From: a bacterium
Lineage (GTDB): Bacteria > Patescibacteriota > Minisyncoccia > Phycocordibacterales > UBA6899
Length of the DNA: 64,000 bases
Assembly: GCA_021851895.1 (NCBI GenBank)
Contig: JAJZQJ010000002.1
Location: forward strand, 5,046-69,045
Reading direction: 5' to 3'
A program made the position numbers and the translations under genes. Below, in pieces: positions 3,514 to 29,454 of the stretch (positions are counted from its first letter, which is position 1; each line of letters opens with the position of its first letter). Under the pieces are notes generated by a model. It was given only the letters and a program-made list of their open reading frames with translations. It had not been told where the DNA came from and made no database searches.

Positions 3514-5259
3514 GTGCCGAGGCAGTTACGTTTCATACGGATTTCGAACAGTCGCAATACGTGGTATATCGTTTCGATATCGACCATATTTGCGATGATC
3601 GTTATGGCTGTCTTCGAATTCTCGCAGCGAGCCATTCATCCCGACATCACTTATACGGAGTCGCGAATCTACACCATCTTTTTTGTTGGTGCGATCGTAG
3701 GTTTGGTCGCCTATTACATCAAGCAGCGAGAAAACAGTTTTATCGCTGAAAAGAATAGGGCACAGCGCACGCTCCGTGAAAACGAAGTGCGTTTTCAAAA
3801 GTTGGTCTCGCACGTCCCAGGTGCGGTCTATCAATTCCGGCGCGACCCTTCCGGGAAATACTCGGTGCCATTCGCAACGGAGGGCCTCACCGAACTTTTT
3901 GGTTGCAGCCCGGAGGAGGTGAGAGATTCCTATGATCCGATCGCCGCAATCGTCGTTCCCGACGATCTTCCTGGCCTTCTCGAGTCGTTTGAGCTGTCTG
4001 CGGCGAGTCTTTCGATGCGCCAGCATGAATTCAGGGTAAAGATTCCGGGTCAGCCGATGAAATGGCTACTGAGTCACTCGACTCCCGAGTGTATTGAAGA
4101 TGGTAGCGTGCTTTGGCATGGTCATGTCGCCGATATCACGAAATATCGCCTCGCGGGTGAAGAGCGGATGCGCTTACAAAAACTCGAATCACTCGGAGTG
4201 CTCGCAGGGGGTATCGCGCATGATTTCAATAACATTTTGACCGCGATTATGGCCAACGCTTCTATGGCGAACCTCACCGCGCGCGACGAGGTGCAAAACG
4301 ATTCGCTTTCCGCAATCGTCAAGGCATCGGAGCGAGCCGCAGGTCTCACTCAGCAATTGCTCGCATTTGCGCGGGGTGGTATACCCTCTACGCAAGTCGC
4401 TTCGATCGCTGACGTGATAAAGGACTCTGCTGAGTTCATTCTCGGTAAGAGTTCGAAATCCGTCTGCGAGATGGATATTGCGGATGATCTTTGGTTGGTC
4501 GACATCGACGGATCGCAGATCGCACAGGTCATACAGAATCTCGTATTGAACGCCGATCAAGCGATGCCTGATGGGGGAAAGATAAAAATTCTTGCAAGGA
4601 ATGTCACTAACCCTCCATCGATCTCTGAAAAAGGGGATTTCGTTCACATCTCGGTCATTGACAAGGGTATCGGGATCCCTAAAGAATCCTTCGACAGTAT
4701 TTTCGAGCCCTACTTCACCACGAAGGGTGCGGGCTCGGGTTTGGGTCTTTCTGTCGTGTTTCGTATCATCGAGAAGCATAAAGGGAGGATCGTGGTGAGC
4801 TCGAAGCAGGGGAAGGGGAGTACGTTCTGTATCTTCTTGCCTGCGGACCATTCGAAGTCGAAGCCTGTTCCGACGATTGATGACGACGCATCTGTTTCGA
4901 AGACATACAAGATCCTTGCGATGGATGATGATCTGATGATGCAGGAAGTGCTGAATGAGGCCCTTTCGATGCTCGGACATCGTGTGACCATGACGGGGAA
5001 TGGAGATGAGGCGATCGATGCGTATCGGACGACCGCTTTCACGGGAGAGCCTTTCGATCTCGTCATCTTAGACTTGACCATCCCCGGAGGGATGGGCGGA
5101 GAAGAGACGCTTCGTCGACTCCTCGAGATCAATCCTGATCTCGTTGCGATCATTTCGAGTGGCTATGCTGACCGAATTCCAACCGGTTTCAAGGCCGCGC
5201 TCCCCAAGCCATACAACCTGAAAACCCTCAGTGGGGTGATCAGGGCTGCCATGCTGTAG
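3514..5259 (+). CDS. hybrid sensor histidine kinase (2 TM, PAS, HisKA, HATPase_c, C-terminal receiver domain)
   Basis: H-box GIAHDFNNILTAI; N/G1/G2 boxes (NLVLNADQAM, DKGIGIP, GSGLGLSV). C-terminal REC domain with DLVILDLTIPGGMGG. AGGAGG RBS 9 nt before GTG 3514. Confidence 0.8.
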   Translation: MPRQLRFIRISNSRNTWYIVSISTIFAMIVMAVFEFSQRAIHPDITYTESRIYTIFFVGAIVGLVAYYIKQRENSFIAEKNRAQRTLRENEVRFQKLVSHVPGAVYQFRRDPSGKYSVPFATEGLTELFGCSPEEVRDSYDPIAAIVVPDDLPGLLESFELSAASLSMRQHEFRVKIPGQPMKWLLSHSTPECIEDGSVLWHGHVADITKYRLAGEERMRLQKLESLGVLAGGIAHDFNNILTAIMANASMANLTARDEVQNDSLSAIVKASERAAGLTQQLLAFARGGIPSTQVASIADVIKDSAEFILGKSSKSVCEMDIADDLWLVDIDGSQIAQVIQNLVLNADQAMPDGGKIKILARNVTNPPSISEKGDFVHISVIDKGIGIPKESFDSIFEPYFTTKGAGSGLGLSVVFRIIEKHKGRIVVSSKQGKGSTFCIFLPADHSKSKPVPTIDDDASVSKTYKILAMDDDLMMQEVLNEALSMLGHRVTMTGNGDEAIDAYRTTAFTGEPFDLVILDLTIPGGMGGEETLRRLLEINPDLVAIISSGYADRIPTGFKAALPKPYNLKTLSGVIRAAML

Positions 5260-12372: not shown

Positions 12373-13260
12373 TCAAAGGATACGCGGATGTTGCTCGATG
12401 AACGCACGCATTTCCTCAGGAGTGCGACAGCTGTGGCGGATTTCGCGCCACGGACCGAACTCGGTCGGGTGCTCTCTGGTCGTTTCGCGAACGCGTTCGA
12501 AGTAGAAGGGGTTGTTCGCCTTCGGGTTGTCTTCGTCGAGTTCATCCACGTGGTAGTGAATGATCGCACCATTATCCGGAATGCGGTCGCGCCAGAGGTA
12601 TTTGCCGTTGGTGTCGAGACTCGTTTTGTTCTCCAAGACGGACATACACGCGAGGATGAAATCTCCATGCGTGACGATGAGCGGGCTCTTGAACTTGCGT
12701 GCATGAACATCGCGCAAGATGTCGCCAGCACGTCCCTGAGTGACGACGAACGGTTCACCATTCGGCGGAACCCAAGTGAAGATGTCTTCGATCATGCGAA
12801 TTTCGATGACCTGTCCATCAGGTAGTCTGAGTTCGCGCGTGATCTCGCCCTCGCGTCGCTTGCGATGTTCCTCAACGAGATCCATATGCTTCCAGCCGGG
12901 CTGCTCGAGGTCGCCCCAGAAACGCTCGCGAATGCGACCGGTGACCTGCCATCCGAGGTAGCGGTCCTCTGGTTTGAAGTAGCCACCCTTTTCGTTGAAG
13001 ATGAGGGCGGTCTCGATGGCGCGGTCCATGTCAGAGCAGTAGCACCAATCGAAGTAGGGGAATTGCGAGCGAAGGAATTCTCCGATCGCAACGCCCATGT
13101 CTGCGCCTTCTTGCGTGAGGCGGTACTGCGGATGGGGGACATGTCGAAGGAGTTCCCCCATGGTGAAGGTGTGGCTCTCCACGATCTCGTGAATCGCTTT
13201 GTTCGCGACAGAGGGAAGATGACGGACGAGGATGAGATCACGAGCAGGACGTTTGCACAT
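12373..13260 (-). CDS. histidine phosphatase superfamily protein (phosphoglycerate-mutase-like), GC-rich gene
   Basis: LILVRH.. near the N-terminus, CYCSDMDRAIETA and a C-terminal IVTHGDFI. AAGGAG RBS 7 nt upstream of the ATG. The RH is followed by L rather than G, so activity is uncertain. Confidence 0.5.
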   Translation of the reverse strand: MCKRPARDLILVRHLPSVANKAIHEIVESHTFTMGELLRHVPHPQYRLTQEGADMGVAIGEFLRSQFPYFDWCYCSDMDRAIETALIFNEKGGYFKPEDRYLGWQVTGRIRERFWGDLEQPGWKHMDLVEEHRKRREGEITRELRLPDGQVIEIRMIEDIFTWVPPNGEPFVVTQGRAGDILRDVHARKFKSPLIVTHGDFILACMSVLENKTSLDTNGKYLWRDRIPDNGAIIHYHVDELDEDNPKANNPFYFERVRETTREHPTEFGPWREIRHSCRTPEEMRAFIEQHPRIL

Positions 13261-14888: not shown

Positions 14889-16220
14889 ATGGACAAGATG
14901 AACATGATCGCGACCGCGCAAGCTCTCCTCGATGCAGCCAAGCGAGAGGGGGCGAGTGATGCACGTTGCGTCGTCGCCAGTACCCGCAATGAGCGGCTGA
15001 CGATACGCGAGAGCAAGGTCAGTGGATATTCTCCGAAGACAAGCTACAGTCTCGTGCTCACCGTTTTCTGTGGTGATCGGCGTGCGGTCGTCAAAGGCGT
15101 GTCCTCGGATGCGAAGGCGATCGAGACGCTCGCGCGCGAAGGCGTTGCGCTTGCGCGCGTAAGTGGTGCGCATGAGTTCGATGGTGTGCCGGGGCCGGAA
15201 TATTGGCCGTGCACCTCCGAGGAGTTCGATGAATTGCAGGAAGGACTTTCCTGCGTCGACCGCGGACCCATTCCGGATTTCCACGTGCTCAAAGGGTACG
15301 CAGAGGAATTGCACGATCTTTCCCTCGCGAATGAGGGAGTCGTGCGCGTGGAAGTCAGTGTCATTTACCTGAAAAGTGCGCAAGTATTCGCGACGACGGC
15401 GGGCTTCACCGCTTTCGAAGAGGGCTCCACGTGGAGCGTCTTCGCTGAGGTAGTCGGAGACGATAACGGTGAGATCATCGTTGGCGTCGACGGCTCGCGT
15501 GCCTGCACGAGAGCAGCACTTCGCCCATTCAAAGCTGTCGCAGCAAGAGCGTATCACAACATGTGCGAGCGCAGAGGCGCGGTGCGTCCGAAGTCGGACA
15601 CTATCCACGTCATCCTGCGTTCTGATGTTGCAGAGAGAGCCATCGATACGATGATCGATGCACTGGATGCCGATGCGGCATTCCGCAAGAAGACGTATCT
15701 CCTGGGGTCGATCGGCGAACGCTGCATGAGTGAAGCGCTGACGATCACGGATTTCCCGCGCATCAAGTACTCTCCGTTCGCGGGACTCTTCGATAATGAC
15801 GGCGTTGCCACGAAGGATCGTGTGCTTGTCGATCGCGGTGTTCCGACGGGATGGATCGGTGGCTATGAGGAGTGTCGCAGGCTCGGTATCGAACCGACTG
15901 GTAACTCCTCAGGCTGCTCTCAAGTGTTCGTGAATCCTGGCTCGATGAATCTCGATGAGCTCTGCGGAAAGTTTCCCCGCGTGCTCGTCGTGACTGATTT
16001 CTGCGGCAGAGGTTTCGACCCGGAGACTGGAGAGGTTTCTGTGGGTGTCGAAGGATATATTATCGACAAAGGGAAGCGCGAGGTTGTCCATGAGGCGATC
16101 ATCGCCGGCACCTTGCAGGAGATGCTGAAGCAGTGCATCCCCGCGAACGATGTCGATACCGAAGGGCCGATTCACGTCCCCTCACTCTATGTGGGGGAGA
16201 TGCGGCTCTCGGGGGTTTAA
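14889..16220 (+). CDS. pmbA: PmbA/TldE family metalloprotease partner of TldD
   Basis: About 443 aa, PmbA-like throughout. GAGGAGG RBS 5 nt before ATG 14889. The track start 14850 overlaps the tldD end. Confidence 0.8.
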   Translation: MDKMNMIATAQALLDAAKREGASDARCVVASTRNERLTIRESKVSGYSPKTSYSLVLTVFCGDRRAVVKGVSSDAKAIETLAREGVALARVSGAHEFDGVPGPEYWPCTSEEFDELQEGLSCVDRGPIPDFHVLKGYAEELHDLSLANEGVVRVEVSVIYLKSAQVFATTAGFTAFEEGSTWSVFAEVVGDDNGEIIVGVDGSRACTRAALRPFKAVAARAYHNMCERRGAVRPKSDTIHVILRSDVAERAIDTMIDALDADAAFRKKTYLLGSIGERCMSEALTITDFPRIKYSPFAGLFDNDGVATKDRVLVDRGVPTGWIGGYEECRRLGIEPTGNSSGCSQVFVNPGSMNLDELCGKFPRVLVVTDFCGRGFDPETGEVSVGVEGYIIDKGKREVVHEAIIAGTLQEMLKQCIPANDVDTEGPIHVPSLYVGEMRLSGV

Positions 16221-16282
16221 TTGCAAAGCTCGCTACGGCGAGCTTTTTCTATGGCACTCAGATATGGTATACTTTGTATAGT

Positions 16283-16594
16283 ATGCCACAAGTAAGAAAA
16301 GAAAAACGCACGTACGCAGATCGTAGGGAATACCTTAAGCGTGCAGTTTCTGAACGTAGGAGAAAACTGAAGCTCATGCTGATAGAGTATAAGGGTGGAA
16401 AATGTGCCCGTTGTGGATATTTCTCATGCCCTGCGGTTTTTGATTTACATCATCTCGACGAGTCAAAGAAGGATTTTGGTTTTGGGGTAGGGGGTATTAC
16501 TCGATCATGGGATAGACTAAGGACAGAGGCTGACAAATGCATTCTTCTCTGTGCAAATTGTCATAGGGAATTACATGCAGAAAATGCAAGATGA
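16283..16594 (+). CDS. HNH endonuclease (small, free-standing)
   Basis: 103 aa with CARCGY...DLHHLD...N...CANCHRELH (a zinc-finger HNH motif). The ATG at 16283 lies 9 nt downstream of TGGTATACT. The track's upstream extension overlaps pmbA. Confidence 0.75.
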   Translation: MPQVRKEKRTYADRREYLKRAVSERRRKLKLMLIEYKGGKCARCGYFSCPAVFDLHHLDESKKDFGFGVGGITRSWDRLRTEADKCILLCANCHRELHAENAR

Positions 16595-16624
16595 AATAGA
16601 TAAAATTAGGCATTTTATACTACT

Positions 16625-16652
16625 TGCAAACGGCAAACAATTTTGCTATTAT
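16625..16652 (+). promoter_or_regulatory. promoter for the tRNA gene (TTGCAA - 16/17 nt - TGcTATTAT)
   Basis: -35 TTGCAA at 16625-16630 and an extended -10 TGCTATTAT at 16644-16652. Confidence 0.5.
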
Positions 16653-16706
16653 GCTATTCACTCTAAGGCAAGAGCCGCTAATATTCTTAGAGTAATTGAA
16701 ACACAT

Positions 16707-17036
16707 TCCGGTGTAGCTCAGCGGTAGAGCAGTACGCTGTGGCGTTAAACGCAGCCCATTTCAGTAATGAAATGGTGAACAACGAGGTGAATTGCTGGAA
16801 ACCCTAACGAGAAAGACGAGGGCGATCAGCAGCCAAGCTTTGCGAGGAATCGCACTGAAGGTTCAGAGACTATCCGAAAGGAGTACTGAATATGCAAATA
16901 TTTGGGAAGCGCCTCGCACCCCACTCTTATAAAGCCGCAAGGCTTAACGAAGAAGGGTGATGATATAGTCCTCCCACTACGAAAGTAGTGAACATGAGTA
17001 ACGTATTGGTCGCAGGTTCGAATCCTGCCGCCGGAG
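16707..17036 (+). tRNA. tRNA-Asn(GUU) split by a group I intron; exon 1 16707-16740, exon 2 16999-17036
   Basis: Acceptor stem TCCGGTG/CGCCGGA (one G-U pair); D arm GCTC-AGCGGTA-GAGC; anticodon stem GTACG/CGTAT. The spliced anticodon loop is CTGT|TAA, giving anticodon GTT. T arm GCAGG-TTCGAAT-CCTGC, discriminator G73. Confidence 0.7.
16741..16998 (+). ncRNA. group I self-splicing intron (IC3-like, no ORF) inserted between anticodon positions 35/36
   Basis: Conserved R element GTTCAGAGACTA (16861-16872) and S element GATATAGTCC (16961-16970) form P7. P-like AATTGCTGGAAA and Q-like GATCAGCAGCC are present. P1: exon GCUGU pairs with IGS GCAGC, with a terminal U.G. P10: intron CGUUA pairs with 3' exon UAACG. 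The intron ends in G. Confidence 0.7.
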
Positions 17037-17037
17037 C
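17019..17037 (+). repeat. att-like core, copy 1 (inside the tRNA 3' end, from the T-loop to the discriminator)
   Basis: CGAATCCTGCCGCCGGAGC, identical to 17229-17247. Confidence 0.6.
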
Positions 17038-17049
17038 AGAAAACATTAA

Positions 17050-17082
17050 TCCATGAAGCGAAGCTTCATGGATTTTTGTTTT
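17050..17082 (+). terminator. intrinsic terminator after the tRNA
   Basis: TCCATGAAGC-GA-AGCTTCATGGA followed by TTTTTGTTTT. Confidence 0.6.
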
Positions 17083-17228
17083 CCTCCGCCGCAGGATTCG
17101 AAGGGCGGAGGCCGCGAAGCCGGCCGCTGAGGTTCCGACCGAAGCGGTCGACGCCGAGCCCTGGCCCTACCTGCACCCCCTATTTCTCAAGCCGAAGGCG
17201 CTAGAGAAAAACGGAGGTGACAGAGGGG

Positions 17229-17247
17229 CGAATCCTGCCGCCGGAGC
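17229..17247 (+). repeat. att-like core, copy 2 (direct repeat of the tRNA 3' end, 210 bp downstream)
   Basis: 19/19 identity with 17019-17037. The flanks differ, so this is not a full tRNA copy. Confidence 0.6.
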
Positions 17248-17252
17248 CAATC

Positions 17253-17287
17253 AAAAAACGAGACACGAAGGTGCCTCGTTTTTTTGC
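17253..17287. terminator. bidirectional intrinsic terminator
   Basis: AAAAAACGAGACAC-GAAG-GTGCCTCGTTTTTTT. Confidence 0.55.
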
Positions 17288-17327
17288 TTTCACGATAATT
17301 CGAGATAAAGGATCTGTGATAGAGAAC

Positions 17328-17540
17328 CTACTTCTTTGTGAGCTGCATGGAGATGTATGCGAGATACACCGCTGCGATACCAACGAGACCATAGACGATT
17401 CTTGCGATCATCGACATCGCGCCAAAAAGGGTAGCGACGAGATCGAAATCGAACAGGGCGACCAGTCCCCAGTTCAGTCCACCGACAATGACAAGCACGA
17501 TAGCAAGCCAGTCGAGCGTATTGAGTTTGTTCATGTTGTT
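17328..17540 (-). CDS. DUF378-like small membrane protein
   Basis: 70 aa from MNNMNKLN.. onward. WLAIVLVIVGGLNWGLVALF is typical of the DUF378 family. The track's N-terminal extension to 17669 is doubtful. Confidence 0.55.
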   Translation of the reverse strand, partial: NNMNKLNTLDWLAIVLVIVGGLNWGLVALFDFDLVATLFGAMSMIARIVYGLVGIAAVYLAYISMQLTKK

Positions 17541-17656
17541 CATTATTAATGCACGAGTGCGCTCTTCGACCACATGCGCATTAGTATGATTATAACACGA
17601 AAGTATAGTATGGTAATATAATGATATCGTTAACATGGTATTAACATAGAGATCGT

Positions 17657-21706: not shown

Positions 21707-22546
21707 ATGGCACAAACAATTTTTGAACAAATCAAGAAGGTAAATGAGTTCGGCGGAGAATATTGGCAGGCGCGTGAGCTCGCAAAGGTTCTTGAATATG
21801 CTGACTTTGGGAATTTTGAAAATGTCATTAAAAAGGCAATGGACGCCTGTGAGGCAAGTGGGCAGGAGGTTGCGGACCATTTCGGTGCTCTCACCGAGAT
21901 GGTCGAAATTGGGTCAGGAGCAAAGCGAGAAATGTCAAGTTATGCACTTTCACGCTATGCCTGTTATCTCATAATCCAGGGCGCAGATACGACGAAGATT
22001 ATTATCGCGAAAGCGCATACATATTTTGCCATACAGACAAGAAGGCAAGAAGTAGCCGACCTCCTTGTCGAAGACAATAAGCGTGTCTTCCTGCGTGAGG
22101 AGATGAAAAAGCATAATAAGAATCTGGTCAGTGCGGCAAAGGACGCAGGTGTGACCAATTATGCGAATTTCCAGGATGCAGGATATATGGGACTTTACGG
22201 TGGTATGCGCCAAAAAGACATTCTCGCGCGCAAGCGTCTCTCCGTGAAAGAGGGCATCCTCGATCACATGGGAAGCGAGGAGCTCGCTGCGAATCTTTTC
22301 CGCGCCACACAAACAGAGGCGAAATTACGACGAGACAACATTAGGGGCCAAATTAAGGCAAATCAAACGCACTATGATGTTGGAGGTAGAGTGCGTGCAA
22401 CCATTAAAGAATTAGGAGGAACGATGCCAGAGAAGTTGCCAAATCCAGGTCCGATAAAGGATTCCGTTAAGCGCATTAAGAGCTCAGCGAAGGCCAAGAG
22501 CATTGTTGAGGGGAAAGTAGTTGCGAGGAAAAAGAAAAAAGCGTAA
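21707..22546 (+). CDS. dinD: DNA-damage-inducible protein D (DinD)-like
   Basis: 279 aa. The segments YWQARELAKVLEY.DF.NF..V...A..ACEASGQ...DHF and SRYACYLIIQ..D..K...A..YFAIQTRRQE match the DinD family as recalled from memory. Confidence 0.55.
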   Translation: MAQTIFEQIKKVNEFGGEYWQARELAKVLEYADFGNFENVIKKAMDACEASGQEVADHFGALTEMVEIGSGAKREMSSYALSRYACYLIIQGADTTKIIIAKAHTYFAIQTRRQEVADLLVEDNKRVFLREEMKKHNKNLVSAAKDAGVTNYANFQDAGYMGLYGGMRQKDILARKRLSVKEGILDHMGSEELAANLFRATQTEAKLRRDNIRGQIKANQTHYDVGGRVRATIKELGGTMPEKLPNPGPIKDSVKRIKSSAKAKSIVEGKVVARKKKKA

Positions 22547-22568
22547 TGCTTAAGAAAAAATAAACATC

Positions 22569-24083
22569 ATGTCTACAAAAACATTCAATCAAGAGGAGCT
22601 CAATAAAGTACTTTGGGCAGCGGCTGATTCCTCTCGAGGTAAGGTTGACGCAAGTATCTATAAGGATTATGTGCTCACGATGCTCTTCTTCAAGTACATG
22701 AGTGATCTGCATAAGAAGACTTATGCAGAGTACCTTAAGCGTTTCGACGGAGATATTGATCGCGTTGAGGAGAAAATGCGTCTCGACCGCTTTGTGCTCC
22801 CCGAGACAGCAACTTTTGAAGCAGTATATGCACAGATAGAGAAGGACAACATCGGCGAAATCATCAATATCGCGCTTAAAGAGGTGGAGGCTGAGAACAG
22901 GGGGAAGCTTGATAAGGTCTTTGCCGTAGACTTCAATTCCGAAAACACCCTCGGTAAGCTCGATGAGCGTAATCGTATGCTGCGTAATTTGCTCAAAGAT
23001 TTCGCAAAGGTGGACTTCAGTGAGGCTGATGAAGACATTGTGGGAAATGCATACATGTATATGATTGAGCGCTTTGGCTCAGCGGCAGGGAAGAAAGCAG
23101 GAGAGTTCTTTACCCCCCGCTCTATCGCTTCGCTCGTCGCACGTCTTGCTGCACCAAAAGCAGGAGATCGTATCGCCGATATGGCCTGTGGGTCAGGCGG
23201 CCTCCTTTTGCTCGCAGGTGAGGAAGTCGAGAAGACTGGCTCAAAGAATTATGCTCTCTATGGTCAAGAGCTTACTGGTACTACCTACCAGCTCGCGCGT
23301 ATGAACATGTTCCTACATCAGAAGGATTCGGCACGCATTGAATGGGGCGATACGCTCAATAGTCCGCTCCTTGTGGAGAACGATCAGCTCATGCGCTTTG
23401 ACGTCTCTGTTGCAAATCCTCCCTTCTCGCTCAAGAAGTGGGGTGCAGAGAATGCAGAGAATGATAAGTACAATCGTTTCTGGCGCGGAATACCACCGAA
23501 GGACAAAGGAGACTATGCCTTCGTAACCCATATGGTTGAAACCACGAAGCCAAAGTCGGGTCGTGGTGTTATCGTCGTGCCCCATGGAGTGCTCTTCCGT
23601 GGTGGAGCGGAAGGGAGAATTCGTGAAGCATTGCTCAAGGAAAATATCATCGATGCAGTCATTGGGCTTCCTGCTGGGCTTTTCCAAACGACAGGTATCC
23701 CCGTCGCAATCCTTATATTCGATCGCTCTCGAGAAGTGGGGGGTGCGAACGAATCTCGCAAAGATGTGCTCTTCATTGAAGCCTCGAAAGAATTCAAGGC
23801 AGGCAAAGCGCAAAGTACCCTCACTGATGAGAATGCGGCAAAGATTATTGATACGTACAAGGGGAGAAAAGAAATCGAAAAGTTCTCTCGTAAAGTCTCG
23901 CTTAAAGAGATCGAGGAGGAAAATGACTTTAATCTAAATATCACTCGATATGTCGATACCTTTGAAGAGGAGGATGAAATTGATATTTCTGCAAATCTCA
24001 AAGAGTTATCTAAGGTAAACGCTGAATTGAAGGAGGTCGAGAAGAAGATGGAGGAGTATTTAAAGATGCTTAATATCGCATAA
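22569..24083 (+). CDS. hsdM: type I R-M N6-adenine DNA methyltransferase subunit
   Basis: 504 aa. N-terminal HsdM helical domain, AdoMet motif I (DMACGSGGLLL) and motif IV NPPF (VANPPFS). Confidence 0.9.
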   Translation: MSTKTFNQEELNKVLWAAADSSRGKVDASIYKDYVLTMLFFKYMSDLHKKTYAEYLKRFDGDIDRVEEKMRLDRFVLPETATFEAVYAQIEKDNIGEIINIALKEVEAENRGKLDKVFAVDFNSENTLGKLDERNRMLRNLLKDFAKVDFSEADEDIVGNAYMYMIERFGSAAGKKAGEFFTPRSIASLVARLAAPKAGDRIADMACGSGGLLLLAGEEVEKTGSKNYALYGQELTGTTYQLARMNMFLHQKDSARIEWGDTLNSPLLVENDQLMRFDVSVANPPFSLKKWGAENAENDKYNRFWRGIPPKDKGDYAFVTHMVETTKPKSGRGVIVVPHGVLFRGGAEGRIREALLKENIIDAVIGLPAGLFQTTGIPVAILIFDRSREVGGANESRKDVLFIEASKEFKAGKAQSTLTDENAAKIIDTYKGRKEIEKFSRKVSLKEIEEENDFNLNITRYVDTFEEEDEIDISANLKELSKVNAELKEVEKKMEEYLKMLNIA

Positions 24084-24086
24084 AAC

Positions 24087-25100
24087 ATGGCAAAGGTAAA
24101 ACAGGCAACAAAAACTTGGGAAGAGCTCGAGAAATTAAGACTCGAATTCGAACAGAGGCTCTTTCCGCAGGTTAAAGCAAAAATTGATGAAATAGAAGCC
24201 TATAGAGATACTCTTCTCGATGACAATGAAAAGAAGTCATTAAGCACGACTATTTCTGAGTTGTCGGATAAAATCACCGAACTAGAGGAGTCCTTCAAAG
24301 AAAAATTCAGTGACATAGAAACTTTGCATGAGAGGATTTTTCACGGGGATGAGGAGAATGATGCGTTGTCTGATCAGGTTGATGAGTTTGTAAATAAAGC
24401 AAAAGGAGAGCTTGCTGGCTTGAATACAAAACACGCTGATATTAATAGGTATCATGAAAAGGTATTTGGTGAGAAGGATGCTTCTGGAAAGTATTCAGGT
24501 GGGCTCGCGTCAGAGCTAGAAAAGTATGGAAAGAAGTATGAAGCCCTATTTGGCCAAATAGAAGGCTTATTGCCAGGTGCTACAAGTGCTGGTCTTGCTC
24601 AGGCATTTAGCGATAAGGTTGATGAATACAAGAAAGAGGCTTCAAAGTGGAAGTGGATTACTTTTGGCTCCTTGTGTATCGCAGTCGTTCTTAGTATCGT
24701 CTCATACTGGCTTGATCGTGGTCAGGTGCTCTCGTTTTCATTTGTCATGATCCGGCTTGCACAGAAATTGCCTTTTGTTTTGTTTGCAGTTTGGCTGGTT
24801 GTATATGCAAATAATCGACGTGCAGAAAATAAAAAACTCGAAGAGTCATATAAGCATAAAGAGGTAATCGCGAGATCTTTTGTGGGCTATAGGAAGCAAA
24901 TTGAGGATCTCGATCTCGACACTGAAGATAATAATTTACTTATTTCGCTCACGACAGGATTACTTGATGCCATCATGATCAATTCATCAGATTTCTTAAC
25001 AGCGACTGGCGAGAAGAGTCCGATTCATGAAATGCTTGATAAAGCTGCAGATACTGCGAGTGCCGCAGTATCTAGCCCTGTAATTTCTATAAAGAAATAA
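24087..25100 (+). CDS. coiled-coil / 2-TM protein of unknown function embedded between hsdM and hsdS (candidate membrane effector)
   Basis: 337 aa. About 190 aa of heptad-rich helical N-terminus, then two adjacent TM helices (WKWITFGSLCIAVVLSIVSYWL; LPFVLFAVWLVVYANN) and about 100 aa of C-terminus. ATG 3 nt after the hsdM stop and 3 nt before the hsdS start. Confidence 0.6.
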   Translation: MAKVKQATKTWEELEKLRLEFEQRLFPQVKAKIDEIEAYRDTLLDDNEKKSLSTTISELSDKITELEESFKEKFSDIETLHERIFHGDEENDALSDQVDEFVNKAKGELAGLNTKHADINRYHEKVFGEKDASGKYSGGLASELEKYGKKYEALFGQIEGLLPGATSAGLAQAFSDKVDEYKKEASKWKWITFGSLCIAVVLSIVSYWLDRGQVLSFSFVMIRLAQKLPFVLFAVWLVVYANNRRAENKKLEESYKHKEVIARSFVGYRKQIEDLDLDTEDNNLLISLTTGLLDAIMINSSDFLTATGEKSPIHEMLDKAADTASAAVSSPVISIKK

Positions 25101-25103
25101 TTC

Positions 25104-26246
25104 ATGGAACTAGCGAAACAAAAAATTCCGTCCACTTGGCAAAAACTTCGCCTCGGTGATTGTCTGACAATAAAGCATGGTAAATCACAAAAAGAAATTG
25201 AAGTAGTCGATGGTAAATATCCCATCCTTGCTTCAGGTGGAGTTATAGGGAGAACTAATACTCCACTATATAGTAAGCCATCAGTATTAATCGGTAGAAA
25301 AGGGACGATTGATAAGCCTAGATACATGGATACTCCTTTTTGGACGGTAGATACGCTATTTTACAGTCAGGTAAAGGACAACTCTGTACCCAAGTATTTG
25401 TTTTATGTATTCAATTTCATTGACTGGTATGAATACAATGAGGCTTCGGGAGTCCCAAGTCTTTCGTCGAGCACTATTTCCTCAATAGAAGTTCTACTTC
25501 CTCCTCTCCCTGAACAAAACCGCATCGTTTCGGTTCTTGAAACCTGGGATAAGGCAATTGAAAAACTTTCTCGAAAGATTGAAATTAAGAAGGAAATCAA
25601 GAGGGGATTGATGCGGGGCTTACTGACTGGCAAGCTCAGGGTAACAGGTCGCGGTGGGAGTTGGGATGTCTATAAAATCGGTGACATAATTGTTGAAAGT
25701 CGAATTCCTTCCAAGAGTTTTGATGTTACTAAAAGGATTAGTGTGCGACTAAATATGAATGGCGTAGAGAGTAGGGAAGTGCGAGGTACTGAGGCTGAGG
25801 GCTCGACCATGTTTTTCGTTAGGAGCGCTGGTCAGTTTGTTTATGGAAAGCAAAATTTATATAAGGGAGCGATGGGGATTATTCCAGAACAGCTTAATGG
25901 TTATGAGAGCACTCAAGATATCCCCTCTTTTGATTTCAGGGAAGGATTTGATTCTAAGTGGTTCTTGTATTTCATGGGCAGAGAAAGTTTTTATTCGCAA
26001 CTTGAAGATATTGCAACTGGTTCAGGGTCCAAGCGAATTCATCCACGAGATTTATTTAAAATTAAGATTCGGGTACCTAAATATGACGAACAGTTAGCAA
26101 TTGCATCTGTGCTATCGGTTGCCGATTCGGAAATCCGCATACTTACCCAAAAACAGCAGTGTCTAGAGAGGCAGAAAAAGTTTCTCCTTAATAATCTTGT
26201 CACTGGAAAAATTCGTACTCCAGAAAACCTACAATATGCTAAATAA
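25104..26246 (+). CDS. hsdS: type I R-M specificity subunit (two TRDs)
   Basis: 380 aa. Two TRDs separated and followed by conserved regions (LLPPLPEQNRIVSVLE...; VPKYDEQLAIASVL...). Confidence 0.85.
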   Translation: MELAKQKIPSTWQKLRLGDCLTIKHGKSQKEIEVVDGKYPILASGGVIGRTNTPLYSKPSVLIGRKGTIDKPRYMDTPFWTVDTLFYSQVKDNSVPKYLFYVFNFIDWYEYNEASGVPSLSSSTISSIEVLLPPLPEQNRIVSVLETWDKAIEKLSRKIEIKKEIKRGLMRGLLTGKLRVTGRGGSWDVYKIGDIIVESRIPSKSFDVTKRISVRLNMNGVESREVRGTEAEGSTMFFVRSAGQFVYGKQNLYKGAMGIIPEQLNGYESTQDIPSFDFREGFDSKWFLYFMGRESFYSQLEDIATGSGSKRIHPRDLFKIKIRVPKYDEQLAIASVLSVADSEIRILTQKQQCLERQKKFLLNNLVTGKIRTPENLQYAK

Positions 26247-29200
26247 AGTCCATTTTGATGAAGCGCGTCAGGTACAGTTGCCCGCAGTAGAGTTGCTCAT
26301 AAGCCTTGGTTATGAGTATATTTCGGTGAGCGAGGCGCTGCGTGAGCGTGGGGGAGATGAACGTAACGTAATACTGCGTGATATCGCGCGTGCGAAGTTA
26401 ATGGAAATTAATAGCTATGAGCTCGATGGTGAAAAGATGCAATTCACTCCTCGCGATGTGAATGAGGCTATTGATGAGCTCGAAAACCTTCCATTTGAGG
26501 GACTTCAGAAGACCGCACAAAACATTTACCGCATGATCATGCCGACGAGTGGCGGGAAGACTGTCGAGGTGCGTAAGGGAGACTCGAAAAACTTTCGTTT
26601 CATCGATTTTGCGGAACCCCATAATAATGCTTTTCATGTGACGGTAGAATATACCGTCGTTGGTAAAGAAGAGATCCGCCCGGATATCGTTTGTTTTGTG
26701 AATGGTTTTCCTATTGCGGTTATCGAAAGCAAGAAGCATACGGTATCGGTGGAAGAAGCACTAGAGCAGATGGTGCGCAATCAAGGCGTCGAATATGCTC
26801 CAAAACTATATACCTTTGCACAGATACTTGTGGGCTCAAATGGTACTGATTTCCGCTATGGTACAACCGGCACTGGCGAGAAATTTTATGCAGTCTGGAA
26901 AGAAAAGCCTAGAGAGAAAGGAGAGGCGGATCTTGAGCGACTTGATGCGCGCGTAAAGGAATTAATTGCTCAGCCGATTGCCGTAGGTGTGTATCAAGAA
27001 TTGCTCAATGACTTGAGCCGAGGCCAATCACATCATGAGCAACTTTGCGATCGCCCTATTACTGCGCAAGATCGCAGTATCGTCGCACTCTTTACGCCAG
27101 AGCGCTTACTTGATCTCACAAAGCACTTTGTGATTTTCGATGCAATGGAGAAGAAGATTGCACGCTATCAGCAGTATTTTGCTATTGAGAAGATGCGTCG
27201 CCGTGTGATGGAGAAGGAGGCCGCACCTGAGGGCGGCGAGCGTCGCCGTGGCGGTATCGTCTGGCATACACAAGGGTCTGGAAAGTCGCTGACGATGGTG
27301 CTCTTCGTGAAGGCGCTTATAGAGGATGAGCATATTAAGAATCCTCGTGTCATTATTGTTACCGACCGCAGAGATCTTGATAGGCAAATCAAGGGAACGT
27401 TTGAGAATTGTGGACTCAAGAAGGACGTCGTCCAGGCAAAGACGGGACAGCACCTGCTTGATCTTATTCAAGAGAAGAATCTTGGAGTCATCACCACTCT
27501 CGTGCAAAAGTTTGAGAGCGTCGCGAAGAAGCGTGAAGATTTTGTTGACCCCGATGAGAACATCTTTGTGCTCATCGATGAGGCGCATCGTACCCACGGC
27601 GGTATGGCGAGCCTTGAGATGTCCCGCACAATACCGAATGCTTGCTATATTGCCTTTACGGGTACGCCACTCATGCGCGAGGAGAAGGAGAGCTGGAGGC
27701 GTTTTGGGGCATATATTGACAAATATACCATTGATGACGCCGTGCTCGATGGTAATGTGCTCCCACTGATCTATGAGGGACGCTTTGTGCCGCTTGTGCA
27801 GAATGCAAAGAAGATTGATGAGCTTGTTGATCGTGTAAAAGAGCGTGCAATACACAAATACCAGTCCAATGGTGAAGAAGATAAACGCGAAGAGGAGTCG
27901 GTAAATCGCGAAGCGTTGGTCAATAATCCACAGCGCCTCCGTGAAATAGTCCATGATATTGAATCGCATTATAAGATGGAGCTGCAGGGGACAGGACTTA
28001 AGGCGCAAGTTGTTGCTCCCAGCAAATTTGCGGCAGTAAAAATGCAACAAATGTTTCTCGAGAGCGGGTTGGTGAAGTCTGCGGTCGTTGTCTCAGATGA
28101 GTCGGGGATTGTTCATGAGGATGACTACCGAAGGCAGGAAGTTGTCGATTTCTTGGATAAGATAAAAGATACTCATTCGAGTATTGAAGAATATGAGAAA
28201 GAAGTGATTCGCGACTTCAAGGATAATGCAGATGGTGTCGAAGTGCTTATCGTTGTCCATAAGCTCCTCACGGGTTTTGATGCCCCAAGAAATACCGTGC
28301 TTTACCTCGCAAAGAGTTTGAGGGACCATGACTTACTTCAAGCAATTGCTCGTGTGAACAGGCTTTGCGATAAGGGCAAGAAGCAGAAAACATCAGGGTA
28401 TATTATTGATTATTCCGAGAATGCACAACACCTCAAGAGTGCGATGCAGCTCTTTGGGAACTACGAGGAGGACGATGTGCACGGCACGCTTGTGGACGTG
28501 GGAGAGAAGATGCAGGAACTGGCACAAGCATATGCGGCCATACATGATATTTTTCGTGGCGTGCATGGGGCGAAGACGGTAGAACCGTTCATGGAGGTGC
28601 TCAAGGCAGAGGATACACGCGTGGAATTTAATGCCGCAGTAAATACATACACAAAGCTCTTCAGTGAATGTCTTGCGTTGAAGGATTTCAATGAGAACTT
28701 CAAAGATATTGATCTGTATAAGCGAGAGCTCAGAAAGTTCGTCGAATTAAGAAAGCTTTCGCGGTTCAGATACGGCGAGCGAACGGACTTTAATGAGTAC
28801 AAATTTGCGTTGATGCGTATCCTTGATCAGTATGTTGATACCGAAGGAGGCGTGGAGCGTCTTACTGAAAAGATTGATGTTCGCGATATTGCTCAGGTGC
28901 GTAAGGCTGTTGAAGAGATCGTAGATAGCAAGGAGAAGGCTGAGGCGATTGCGACACAGGTGAATAAGACTATTCACGACCGTGAGGCTGAGGATCCTGT
29001 CTACTATAAGTCACTCTCGGAACGAGTTGAGGAAATTATACGAGCGATGCGAGAGGGGAGAATGCAAGACCTCGTTGCCCTTGAAGGGCTCGAAGAATTG
29101 CTCATTGCCGCAAATGAGAAGAAGCAGGCCTCAGTACCAAGTCAGATTGAAGCTGAACATGGAGCAGATCTATTTTATCGAAATTTACTTCCACATTTTG

Positions 29201-29454
29201 AGCGTTTTCATCTTATCTCAGATCAAGAGGTGATGCTTTCATTGAGTGTCTTTAAGATTATTAAAGAATTTGCAATAGTCGATTTTGAGCATAACGTCGA
29301 TGTACAGCGCCGCATGCGTAGTGCGCTTGATGACTACTTGTATGATGGTTTCCCTTCCGAGTGGAATGTTTCGCTATCTTCGAGAGAAAGGGGAGACATA
29401 GTTGCCGCAATGGTTGAACTCGCAAAACACAATCATGAGCTCTTTAGTGCATAA
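26236..29454 (+). CDS. hsdR: type I R-M restriction subunit (helicase/endonuclease)
   Basis: About 1072 aa. N-terminal nuclease region, SF2 helicase motifs (GSGKSLTM Walker A; DEAH: LIDEAHRTHGG; motif VI QAIARVNR). The ATG at 26236 overlaps the hsdS stop. Confidence 0.9.
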   Translation: MLNKVHFDEARQVQLPAVELLISLGYEYISVSEALRERGGDERNVILRDIARAKLMEINSYELDGEKMQFTPRDVNEAIDELENLPFEGLQKTAQNIYRMIMPTSGGKTVEVRKGDSKNFRFIDFAEPHNNAFHVTVEYTVVGKEEIRPDIVCFVNGFPIAVIESKKHTVSVEEALEQMVRNQGVEYAPKLYTFAQILVGSNGTDFRYGTTGTGEKFYAVWKEKPREKGEADLERLDARVKELIAQPIAVGVYQELLNDLSRGQSHHEQLCDRPITAQDRSIVALFTPERLLDLTKHFVIFDAMEKKIARYQQYFAIEKMRRRVMEKEAAPEGGERRRGGIVWHTQGSGKSLTMVLFVKALIEDEHIKNPRVIIVTDRRDLDRQIKGTFENCGLKKDVVQAKTGQHLLDLIQEKNLGVITTLVQKFESVAKKREDFVDPDENIFVLIDEAHRTHGGMASLEMSRTIPNACYIAFTGTPLMREEKESWRRFGAYIDKYTIDDAVLDGNVLPLIYEGRFVPLVQNAKKIDELVDRVKERAIHKYQSNGEEDKREEESVNREALVNNPQRLREIVHDIESHYKMELQGTGLKAQVVAPSKFAAVKMQQMFLESGLVKSAVVVSDESGIVHEDDYRRQEVVDFLDKIKDTHSSIEEYEKEVIRDFKDNADGVEVLIVVHKLLTGFDAPRNTVLYLAKSLRDHDLLQAIARVNRLCDKGKKQKTSGYIIDYSENAQHLKSAMQLFGNYEEDDVHGTLVDVGEKMQELAQAYAAIHDIFRGVHGAKTVEPFMEVLKAEDTRVEFNAAVNTYTKLFSECLALKDFNENFKDIDLYKRELRKFVELRKLSRFRYGERTDFNEYKFALMRILDQYVDTEGGVERLTEKIDVRDIAQVRKAVEEIVDSKEKAEAIATQVNKTIHDREAEDPVYYKSLSERVEEIIRAMREGRMQDLVALEGLEELLIAANEKKQASVPSQIEAEHGADLFYRNLLPHFERFHLISDQEVMLSLSVFKIIKEFAIVDFEHNVDVQRRMRSALDDYLYDGFPSEWNVSLSSRERGDIVAAMVELAKHNHELFSA

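Follow-up and report, generated by a model that had tools for sequence, protein, structure and literature searches.

A free-standing HNH nuclease gene next to an intron-split tRNA-Asn gene in Patescibacteria, and its intronic and phage relatives

Introduction

The tRNAs for asparagine, aspartate and tyrosine all have GUN anticodons, those of the queuosine family. Introns at position 35/36 of the anticodon loop have been reported for all three (PMC13011429). This shared anticodon type may reflect the sequence CUGU, as the target of P1 or of the nuclease, or some property of these tRNAs. In Patescibacteria such introns split genes for tRNA-Asn and for tRNA-Asp, and their self-splicing was demonstrated by Nakagawa et al. 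(mSystems 2026; PMC13011429). Four of the tRNA-Asn introns were reported to encode HNH proteins, eleven in complete genomes being ORF-less, and the conclusion was that most tRNA introns lack homing endonucleases and hence have limited transfer (PMC13011429). Here we describe a related locus in a 64,000-nucleotide (nt) stretch of a Patescibacteriota genome (assembly GCA_021851895.1, contig JAJZQJ010000002.1, positions 5,046 to 69,045), which we refer to in full as the window. It carries a gene for an HNH nuclease just upstream of a tRNA-Asn(GUU) gene that is split by a group I intron without a nuclease gene of its own.

By what route homing endonuclease genes come to reside in group I introns has long been asked, and the known natural intermediates are a few phage cases (psbA with F-CphI and nrdB with mobE). 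Free-standing nucleases also occur among phage tRNA genes. Specifically, T4 SegB recognises a tRNA-gene sequence and drives the inheritance of itself and of adjacent tRNA genes (PMC2330249). The feature in the window is a new location of the element recently described in Patescibacteria, and it can be accommodated within the established idea of collaborative homing, in this case at a tRNA gene of a cell. Comparison with relatives makes it likely that the window gene encodes a functional homing endonuclease that is specialised for tRNA-Asn(GUU), acts in trans and has moved out of an intron.

Results

The nuclease gene and the split tRNA-Asn gene

The nuclease gene and the parts of the split tRNA gene are as follows.

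16283..16594, + strand: predicted gene for a free-standing HNH (Cys4-zinc, beta-beta-alpha-Me) endonuclease of 103 amino acids (aa), ATG to TGA; from the open reading frame (ORF), profiles and conserved residues
16707..16740, + strand: 5' exon of tRNA-Asn(GUU), 34 nt, ending CUGU (U35); from ARAGORN with introns allowed, alignment to intron-less alleles and the spliced fold
16741..16998, + strand: ORF-less group I intron, 258 nt, at anticodon-loop position 35/36; from RF00028 (74.5 bits), with boundaries from the U.G pair, the terminal G, P10 and intron-less alleles
16749..16755, + strand: internal guide sequence ACGCAGC, within the intron
16999..17037, + strand: 3' exon of tRNA-Asn(GUU), with discriminator G17036 and CCA only partly encoded; from ARAGORN and the spliced fold

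The HNH protein has two CxxC pairs (C41/C44 and C90/C93) and the HNH residues D54-L-H56-H57, C90-A-N92-C93-H94 and H98. These catalytic and zinc residues are invariant in a 28-sequence alignment of family members (A1), the basis of all our statements on residue invariance. PHROG HNH families match the protein (2255, E=3.9e-28; 3106, E=8e-26). Pfam at default E and NCBIfam profiles gave no matches, and PDB sequence matches were marginal (McrA, E=0.023). A structural model places a long basic helix at the N terminus, and from the model and the conserved residues we infer a zinc-stabilised beta-beta-alpha-Me nuclease. More than 1500 homologue clusters were identified at 56-89% identity, and all named ones are from Patescibacteria. 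The Pfam HNH model (PF01844, cut-off 21.4 bits) picks up 3 of the 120 best homologues, so surveys of homing endonucleases based on Pfam will miss this family.

Default ARAGORN detected no tRNA in this stretch. Once introns were permitted, the program reported a tRNA-Thr(AGU) at 16707-17037, a boundary shift of 2 nt that is refuted by the U.G pair, the terminal G, P10, the discriminator and the intron-less alleles; the same miscall of these split genes as Thr has been described previously (PMC13011429). We placed the splice junction between 16740 and 16999 based on the P1 U.G pair (GCUGU / CGCAGC), a 5-bp P10 (UAACG/CGUUA), the terminal G (16998), the discriminator G and alignment with intron-less alleles. 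The spliced exons fold as a canonical 73-nt tRNA-Asn(GUU) and are called as tRNA-Asn(gtt). The junction pattern, with CUGU before the intron, G at its end and UAA after it, is that of all 74 intron-containing loci considered below. The RF00028 match is full-length (model positions 1-253) at 74.5 bits, relative to a gathering score of 50 bits. The P1 loop has 8 nt (GGCGUUAAACGCAGC), and the only coding content of the intron is a 46-aa ORF with a TTG start and no nuclease feature. Homologous 35/36 introns of Patescibacteria self-splice in vitro (PMC13011429).

These results bear out what the initial annotation had read from the letters alone: a 103-aa zinc-finger HNH gene, followed at 112 bp (stop at 16594, tRNA start at 16707) by an intron-containing tRNA whose intron has no ORF. 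It had also likened the arrangement to that of free-standing homing endonucleases that mobilise adjacent introns. The layout expected for collaborative homing is indeed present, with the nuclease gene outside yet adjacent to the tRNA and an intron lacking a nuclease ORF, and the family-wide linkage described next agrees with this comparison.

Linkage of the family to tRNA-Asn in Patescibacteria

We scanned one genome per species, found at least 579 loci with a relative of the nuclease and examined the best 80, from Patescibacteria. Together with the window this gives 81 loci, which fall into five arrangements (L numbers denote loci throughout).

58 loci: ORF within the group I intron that splits tRNA-Asn(GUU) at 35/36
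11 loci: free-standing gene directly upstream of an intron-containing tRNA-Asn, the arrangement of the window
5 loci: gene directly downstream of an intron-containing tRNA-Asn (2 on the opposite strand)
6 loci: gene adjoining an intron-less tRNA-Asn
1 locus: contig begins at the gene, arrangement undecidable

The HNH gene is tied to tRNA-Asn in 80 of these loci, and the intron, where present, is always at the 35/36 site. In 22 loci the gene directly adjoins the tRNA-Asn gene instead of lying in an intron. The initial annotation had proposed that conservation of the gene among unrelated neighbours would speak against its reading, and we found no such case among the 81 loci. Rfam confirmed a group I intron in 18 of 20 loci tested, and in the intronic loci the core starts at the 3' end of the ORF. 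Intronic ORFs sit in the P1 loop and begin 6-49 nt past the 5' splice site (mostly about 30 nt). Their last codons run across the internal guide (ACGCAGC, read as '...TQL...') and into the P2 hairpin, which often contains the stop, and the guide is crossed in three different reading frames among lineages. The intronic proteins are 56-73% identical to the window protein.

One locus, L064, has two divergent nuclease copies (1275-1604 and 1691-2071) with about 60% aa identity to each other. Upstream of tRNA-Asn lies an intact copy with the promoter motif described below. The copy in the P1 loop lacks this motif, has GTG in place of ATG and carries substitutions at four otherwise invariant residues. 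A tandem duplication was considered and rejected, given that the two share no more than about 60% identity and group apart from each other in the tree. An intact upstream copy next to a decaying intronic one shows that relocation is not simple duplication.

Relatives in phage tRNA arrays

Viral contigs, when scanned, yielded at least 569 relatives (45-65% identity), of which the best 80 loci were examined. Nearly all of these (78) belong to tRNA arrays, averaging 6.9 tRNAs per 4.2 kb. The HNH gene is in or beside tRNA-Asn in at least 57 of the 80; in 44, the start of an intron-less tRNA-Asn(GUU) is no more than 60 nt from the HNH stop, and in many of the remaining loci tRNA-Asn is the nearest upstream tRNA. 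After clustering of the proteins at 80% identity (39 clusters), the adjacent tRNA is Asn in 23, another tRNA in 7 and absent in 9, while tRNA-Asn makes up only 72 of the 536 tRNAs at phage loci. In the 44 loci with so close a tRNA-Asn, the HNH stop is typically the TAG formed by tRNA positions 8-10, and many phage ORFs overlap the tRNA gene by 10 nt in this way (L090-L115; in L090, ORF 2001-2306 and tRNA 2297-2369). The same overlap was seen once among the Patescibacteria loci, in L033, where the ORF (1224-1535) enters the tRNA-Asn gene and stops at the TAG of positions 8-10.

Among cultured phages, the HNH stop lies 3 nt before tRNA-Asn in Vibrio phage PC-Liy1 (UNA01829.1), tRNA-Asn lies 65 nt upstream of the HNH gene in Klebsiella phage Muenster (QOE32633.1), and Felix O1 ORF45 (NP_944866.1) is within a tRNA array. 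A group I intron occurs in just one viral locus, L087, with an intronic layout like that of Patescibacteria. In three further phage loci (L139, L141 and L147) ARAGORN called 'intron-containing' tRNA-Asn genes, but by Rfam the interruptions are no group I introns. Overall, the family consists of nucleases linked to the tRNA-Asn gene, free-standing in phages and either intronic or free-standing in Patescibacteria. Two observations go beyond the initial annotation: the free-standing family beside intron-less tRNA-Asn in phage arrays, and the six Patescibacteria loci with an uninterrupted tRNA-Asn.

Possible traces of an intronic past in free-standing copies

In neighbour-joining trees based on about 100 columns, the free-standing Patescibacteria copies are scattered among intronic ones. 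As a second line of evidence, we scored the 21 nt after the last catalytic His codon against the intronic consensus GCCGGCATTACGCAGCTTCCT. The tails of intronic copies, which are fixed by RNA pairing, are 71% identical to this consensus, relative to 47% for free-standing Patescibacteria copies and 28%, the random level, for phage copies. A free-standing gene has no reason to encode a guide, so the tail of the free-standing Patescibacteria copies may be read as a fossil of the guide sequence. In L083 and L170, two relatives with the arrangement of the window, the score is 57% each.

Pieces of tRNA exons were also found next to free-standing copies. In L077 a degenerate 5' exon precedes the gene, and in L025 the remnant of a 3' exon follows it; L008 has a duplicated acceptor end and L083 a 5' fragment. 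Near the window gene, no leftover 5' exon or ribozyme piece was identified by Rfam in E-value mode over 16000-17600 or by reading of the flanks.

Overall, this evidence suggests that free-standing Patescibacteria copies came out of introns. The copy in the window most likely descends from an intronic copy that moved out, which is the alternative that the initial annotation had offered beside homing and the one that we favour, given the tails of free-standing copies (47% versus 28% in phages), although the tail of the window copy itself scores 33%.

The lineage of the window copy

One comparison is with L170, from a Candidatus Paceibacterota metagenome-assembled genome (GCA_035583355.1), whose nuclease falls in the same 90% cluster as the window protein. 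This cluster placed the lineage, for which searches with PmbA and oligopeptidase A had yielded no close relatives with a name. The two loci are syntenic, with HisK, a pilin-like gene, a His phosphatase, the HNH gene and tRNA-Asn with an ORF-less intron in both; L170 lacks TldD-PmbA. The nucleases are 91% identical at the aa level with a ratio of nonsynonymous to synonymous divergence (pN/pS) of 0.074, and synonymous sites are saturated. Neighbouring genes are 68-81% identical with pN/pS of 0.18-0.25. Because the catalytic and zinc residues are intact and pN/pS is low, the gene is predicted to be functional. A chance neighbour or a dead relic is ruled out by the linkage statistics and pN/pS.

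The nuclease gene also differs from its surroundings in composition. Its G+C content at third codon positions is 0.32, compared with 0.68 in the neighbouring His-phosphatase gene (12373-13260). The HNH-tRNA segment as a whole has 36-48% GC and the surrounding contig 55-60% GC. Judged by these measures, the nuclease gene is intact, strongly constrained and compositionally foreign.

Two further relatives, L082 (89% aa identity) and L083 (76%), have the arrangement of the window, and L083 has an extra stray copy of the first 18 nt of the tRNA. We considered whether the HNH-tRNA module had moved as a unit, as the differing upstream flank of L082 might indicate, and rejected this: L170 has the module at the same site, and only TldD-PmbA differ.

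Presence and absence of the nuclease at the same site distinguish the window from L085, a closer relative than L170. This locus is syntenic (PmbA 82% aa identity); terminator, tRNA and intron (94% nt identity) are all retained there, whereas the HNH gene is missing. The window intron is 91-94% identical to the introns of L082 and L085. In L085, 68 nt stand in place of window 16253-16700 (L085 2886-2991 corresponds to window 16221-16706), and they align to a decayed nuclease promoter region joined to the post-stop flank of L082. Because the promoter remnant directly abuts the post-stop flank, the L085 spacer looks like a deletion scar, as between short TAG/GTA repeats.

Expression signals

The following signals were identified around the two genes.

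16265..16273, + strand: extended -10 promoter-like element TGGTATACT, ending 9 nt before the HNH ATG; read from sequence, promoter role inferred
16624..16652, + strand: sigma-70-like promoter (TTGCAA, 17 nt, TG-n-TATTAT) in the 112-nt spacer between the HNH stop and the tRNA, likely for the tRNA gene; from a consensus scan only
17048..17074, + strand: terminator hairpin of 12 bp followed by a T-run, closing the HNH-tRNA unit; from sequence

In 49 of 79 family loci, intronic and free-standing alike, a motif of the TGGTATACT type precedes the ATG by 9-10 nt, and most loci without that exact motif have a TATAAT-like variant in the same position. A Shine-Dalgarno-like 4-mer was found in none of the 81 loci. 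Given this absence and the proximity of the -10 element to the ATG, we predict that the HNH mRNA is leaderless or near-leaderless. Promoter and ORF together would form a self-contained cassette able to work wherever it is inserted. The TTGCAA box of the spacer promoter is kept in L082, L085 and L170, and the stretch that separates the two genes showed no terminator.

In L080, the contig opens (1-220) with a tandem duplication of the nuclease promoter and first 24 codons, which may be an assembly artefact of the contig end. No tRNA was found within 3 kb downstream in this locus, only a possible degenerate start of a 5' exon 12 nt past the stop.

Repeats at the 3' end of tRNA-Asn and neighbouring genes

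The 3' end of the tRNA-Asn gene (window 17014-17037) is repeated twice within 210 nt downstream, where none would be expected by chance. The copy at 17088-17102 is inverted (15 nt, 93% complementary). The copy at 17224-17249 is direct, with an exact core of 18 nt followed by CCA and its own terminator at 17253-17284. L085 and L170 have the same repeat region but with different insertions within the direct copy. These copies resemble att-type scars, left either by an integrative element or by recombination events at this tRNA. More broadly, about 18 of the 80 genome contigs stop at the 3' end of tRNA-Asn or within about 50 nt after it (L012, L027, L028, L037, L054, L073, L078 and about 10 more). 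That assemblies break directly after tRNA-Asn suggests variable or repeated DNA at this position in many Patescibacteria. In L021, a LOOT RNA (RF03000, 71.9 bits) was identified at 3820-3943, about 240 nt downstream of the tRNA-Asn locus. Farther along the window, the region 21707-29454 encodes a Bro-N domain protein and, after it, a type I restriction-modification system (HsdM 22569-24083, HsdR 26197-29454).

Discussion

A nuclease that may act in trans

We propose the following sequence of events. The HNH gene would be transcribed from its own extended -10 promoter, as conservation of the element implies, yielding a (near-)leaderless mRNA. The nuclease would then nick or cut the tRNA-Asn gene in genomes that lack it, a step for which the near-absolute linkage of the family to this gene is the evidence. 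Repair by recombination with a nuclease-bearing chromosome could copy both the nuclease gene and the intron about 150 bp away. Such trans, or collaborative, homing is proposed by analogy to F-CphI/psbA and mobE/nrdB (PMC3984707, PMC2790892). In Patescibacteria the usual home of the family is the P1 loop of the tRNA-Asn intron; in the lineage of the window, related to Candidatus Paceibacterota, the copy would have moved out and been kept by selection as a free-standing gene, which can be lost, as apparently happened in L085. In phages, inheritance of tRNA genes in the manner of SegB may be a parallel (PMC2330249).

Several observations weigh against this reading. In most phage loci, and in six Patescibacteria loci, the HNH gene is paired with an uninterrupted tRNA-Asn that has an ordinary-looking anticodon arm. 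The intron is thus not required for the coexistence of HNH and tRNA-Asn, and, because these loci keep the nuclease beside an uninterrupted gene, either the host owes its protection to something other than the intron, or the enzyme targets a site other than the 35/36 junction, or it makes nicks only. The intronic origin of the window lineage rests on its relatives, because the tail of the window copy (HAENAR*) is at background (33%) with no fossil and its P1 loop is without a scar. The key split between phage and Patescibacteria copies has a bootstrap of 19-26%, and the polarity between the two, as read from the trees, is only suggestive. In the window, L170 and L082 the arrangement occupies a single chromosomal site, apparently through vertical inheritance, and conservation above the level of the neighbours could mean a host function. 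Finally, PF01844 scores the window protein at 14.8 bits, under its cut-off, and Foldseek against PDB gave no significant match, with weak structural matches.

Alternative explanations

An unlikely, though not negligible, alternative is that the locus preserves a stage before invasion of the intron. The layout would be ancestral and phage-like, the nuclease would never have been intronic, and intron and nuclease would have converged on the same gene, as in the Bonocora-Shub/Zeng pathway, where collaborative homing leads to a mobile intron. The phage arrangement does have the same order and orientation, phage copies are basal in the midpoint-rooted tree, and the window intron, with its P1 loop of only 8 nt, has a working P10 guide and no scar. 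The tail HAENAR resembles phage tails (HAEEN, HAEL), in line with its background score. Placement of the window clade within a Patescibacteria group dominated by intronic copies argues the other way, albeit with weak support, as does the score of L083 and L170, which share the arrangement of the window and reach the top of the phage range. Other free-standing Patescibacteria copies clearly keep an xxQ/K-L-P tail, and the promoter motif is common to intronic copies.

Exit from an intron, which we favour, must also be weighed against adoption of the nuclease by the host. A domesticated enzyme could cut intron-less tRNA-Asn genes on phage or other foreign DNA while the intron shields the host's own gene, or could maintain a single-copy tRNA-Asn locus. 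We consider this improbable. The gene is under stronger constraint than flanking host genes (pN/pS 0.074 versus 0.18-0.25) and is retained at one chromosomal site in diverged relatives, and phages with arrays containing tRNA-Asn are abundant and encode relatives of the same nuclease. Yet selection on the element itself accounts for the conservation equally well, the gene was lost without replacement in L085, and six loci have it beside an unprotected, intron-less tRNA-Asn. Its codon composition is atypical, as expected of a mobile gene, and no link to known defence genes turned up, although no search was aimed at one. There is, by the same token, a slim chance that nuclease and intron form a device for telling self from non-self, in which the sole host tRNA-Asn gene is made uncuttable by the intron and the intron-less tRNA-Asn of invaders is cut, for example in the arrays of phages that themselves encode related nucleases. 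If true, this would explain why the nuclease is conserved above its host neighbours and would make the self-splicing intron the 'immunity' half of a restriction-like system.

A role as splicing helper (maturase) for the intron, instead of or besides DNA cleavage, is highly improbable: strict linkage to the intron-bearing gene, a basic N-terminal helix that could bind nucleic acid and strong protein conservation would fit it, but ORF-less 35/36 introns of Patescibacteria splice unaided in vitro (PMC13011429), L085 has the intron without the protein, the family also occurs beside intron-less tRNA-Asn in phages and six Patescibacteria loci, and all catalytic residues of a DNA nuclease are conserved. 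HNH proteins are not known to act as maturases of group I introns.

Implications

One family is found in five states. As a free-standing gene it adjoins either an uninterrupted target (phages and six Patescibacteria loci) or an intron without an ORF (the window and 15 further loci); elsewhere it occupies the P1 loop and overlaps the guide (58 loci), is present in both places (L064) or has been deleted (L085). This series provides a comparative and experimentally tractable test of how nuclease genes enter and leave introns. It also qualifies the view that most Patescibacteria tRNA introns are without homing endonucleases and therefore hardly mobile (PMC13011429), and it corrects an under-count of these enzymes in Patescibacteria. 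Screens limited to the interiors of long introns, or to the Pfam HNH model, miss the adjacent copies. In the annotation of these genomes, tRNA-Asn goes undetected or is taken for Thr, and the nuclease carries the label 'hypothetical'.

Comparison with known systems

The intronic HNH genes of PMC13011429 are the closest described relatives. They share the tRNA, the insertion site and the phylum, and our 58 intronic loci match the architecture of the four introns reported there. Unlike these, the window gene is outside its intron, which is ORF-less, and the paper mentions no free-standing copies. In the literature searched in full text, free-standing copies by these tRNAs and a link to nucleases of phage tRNA arrays are unreported.

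The homologous HNH proteins of phage arrays (PC-Liy1, Muenster and Felix O1) are 47-58% identical to the window protein over 75-90% of its length. They differ in their association with intron-less tRNA-Asn; many have other N- or C-terminal extensions, and some subfamilies lie beside tRNA-Ile or other tRNAs. T4 SegB, likewise a free-standing nuclease gene among tRNA genes (PMC2330249), is by analogy the best functional counterpart for these phage relatives, although it is a GIY-YIG enzyme that recognises a general T-psi-C motif, and no intron is involved.

In arrangement, the window most resembles F-CphI with the psbA intron of cyanophage S-PM2 and mobE with the nrdB intron of T4, where a free-standing nuclease lies beside an intron-bearing gene whose intron lacks a working nuclease gene (PMC3984707, PMC6083498, PMC2790892). 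In each case the nuclease is expected to target the intron-less allele, with the intron carried along by co-conversion. F-CphI itself has an Endo VII-type motif, unlike the HNH motif of the window protein. The phage systems involve protein-coding genes for which cleavage and inheritance have been demonstrated, whereas the window locus is in a cellular bacterium, involves a tRNA gene and is known from sequence alone. The direction of travel may also differ, in that the window nuclease probably left an intron and is not heading into one.

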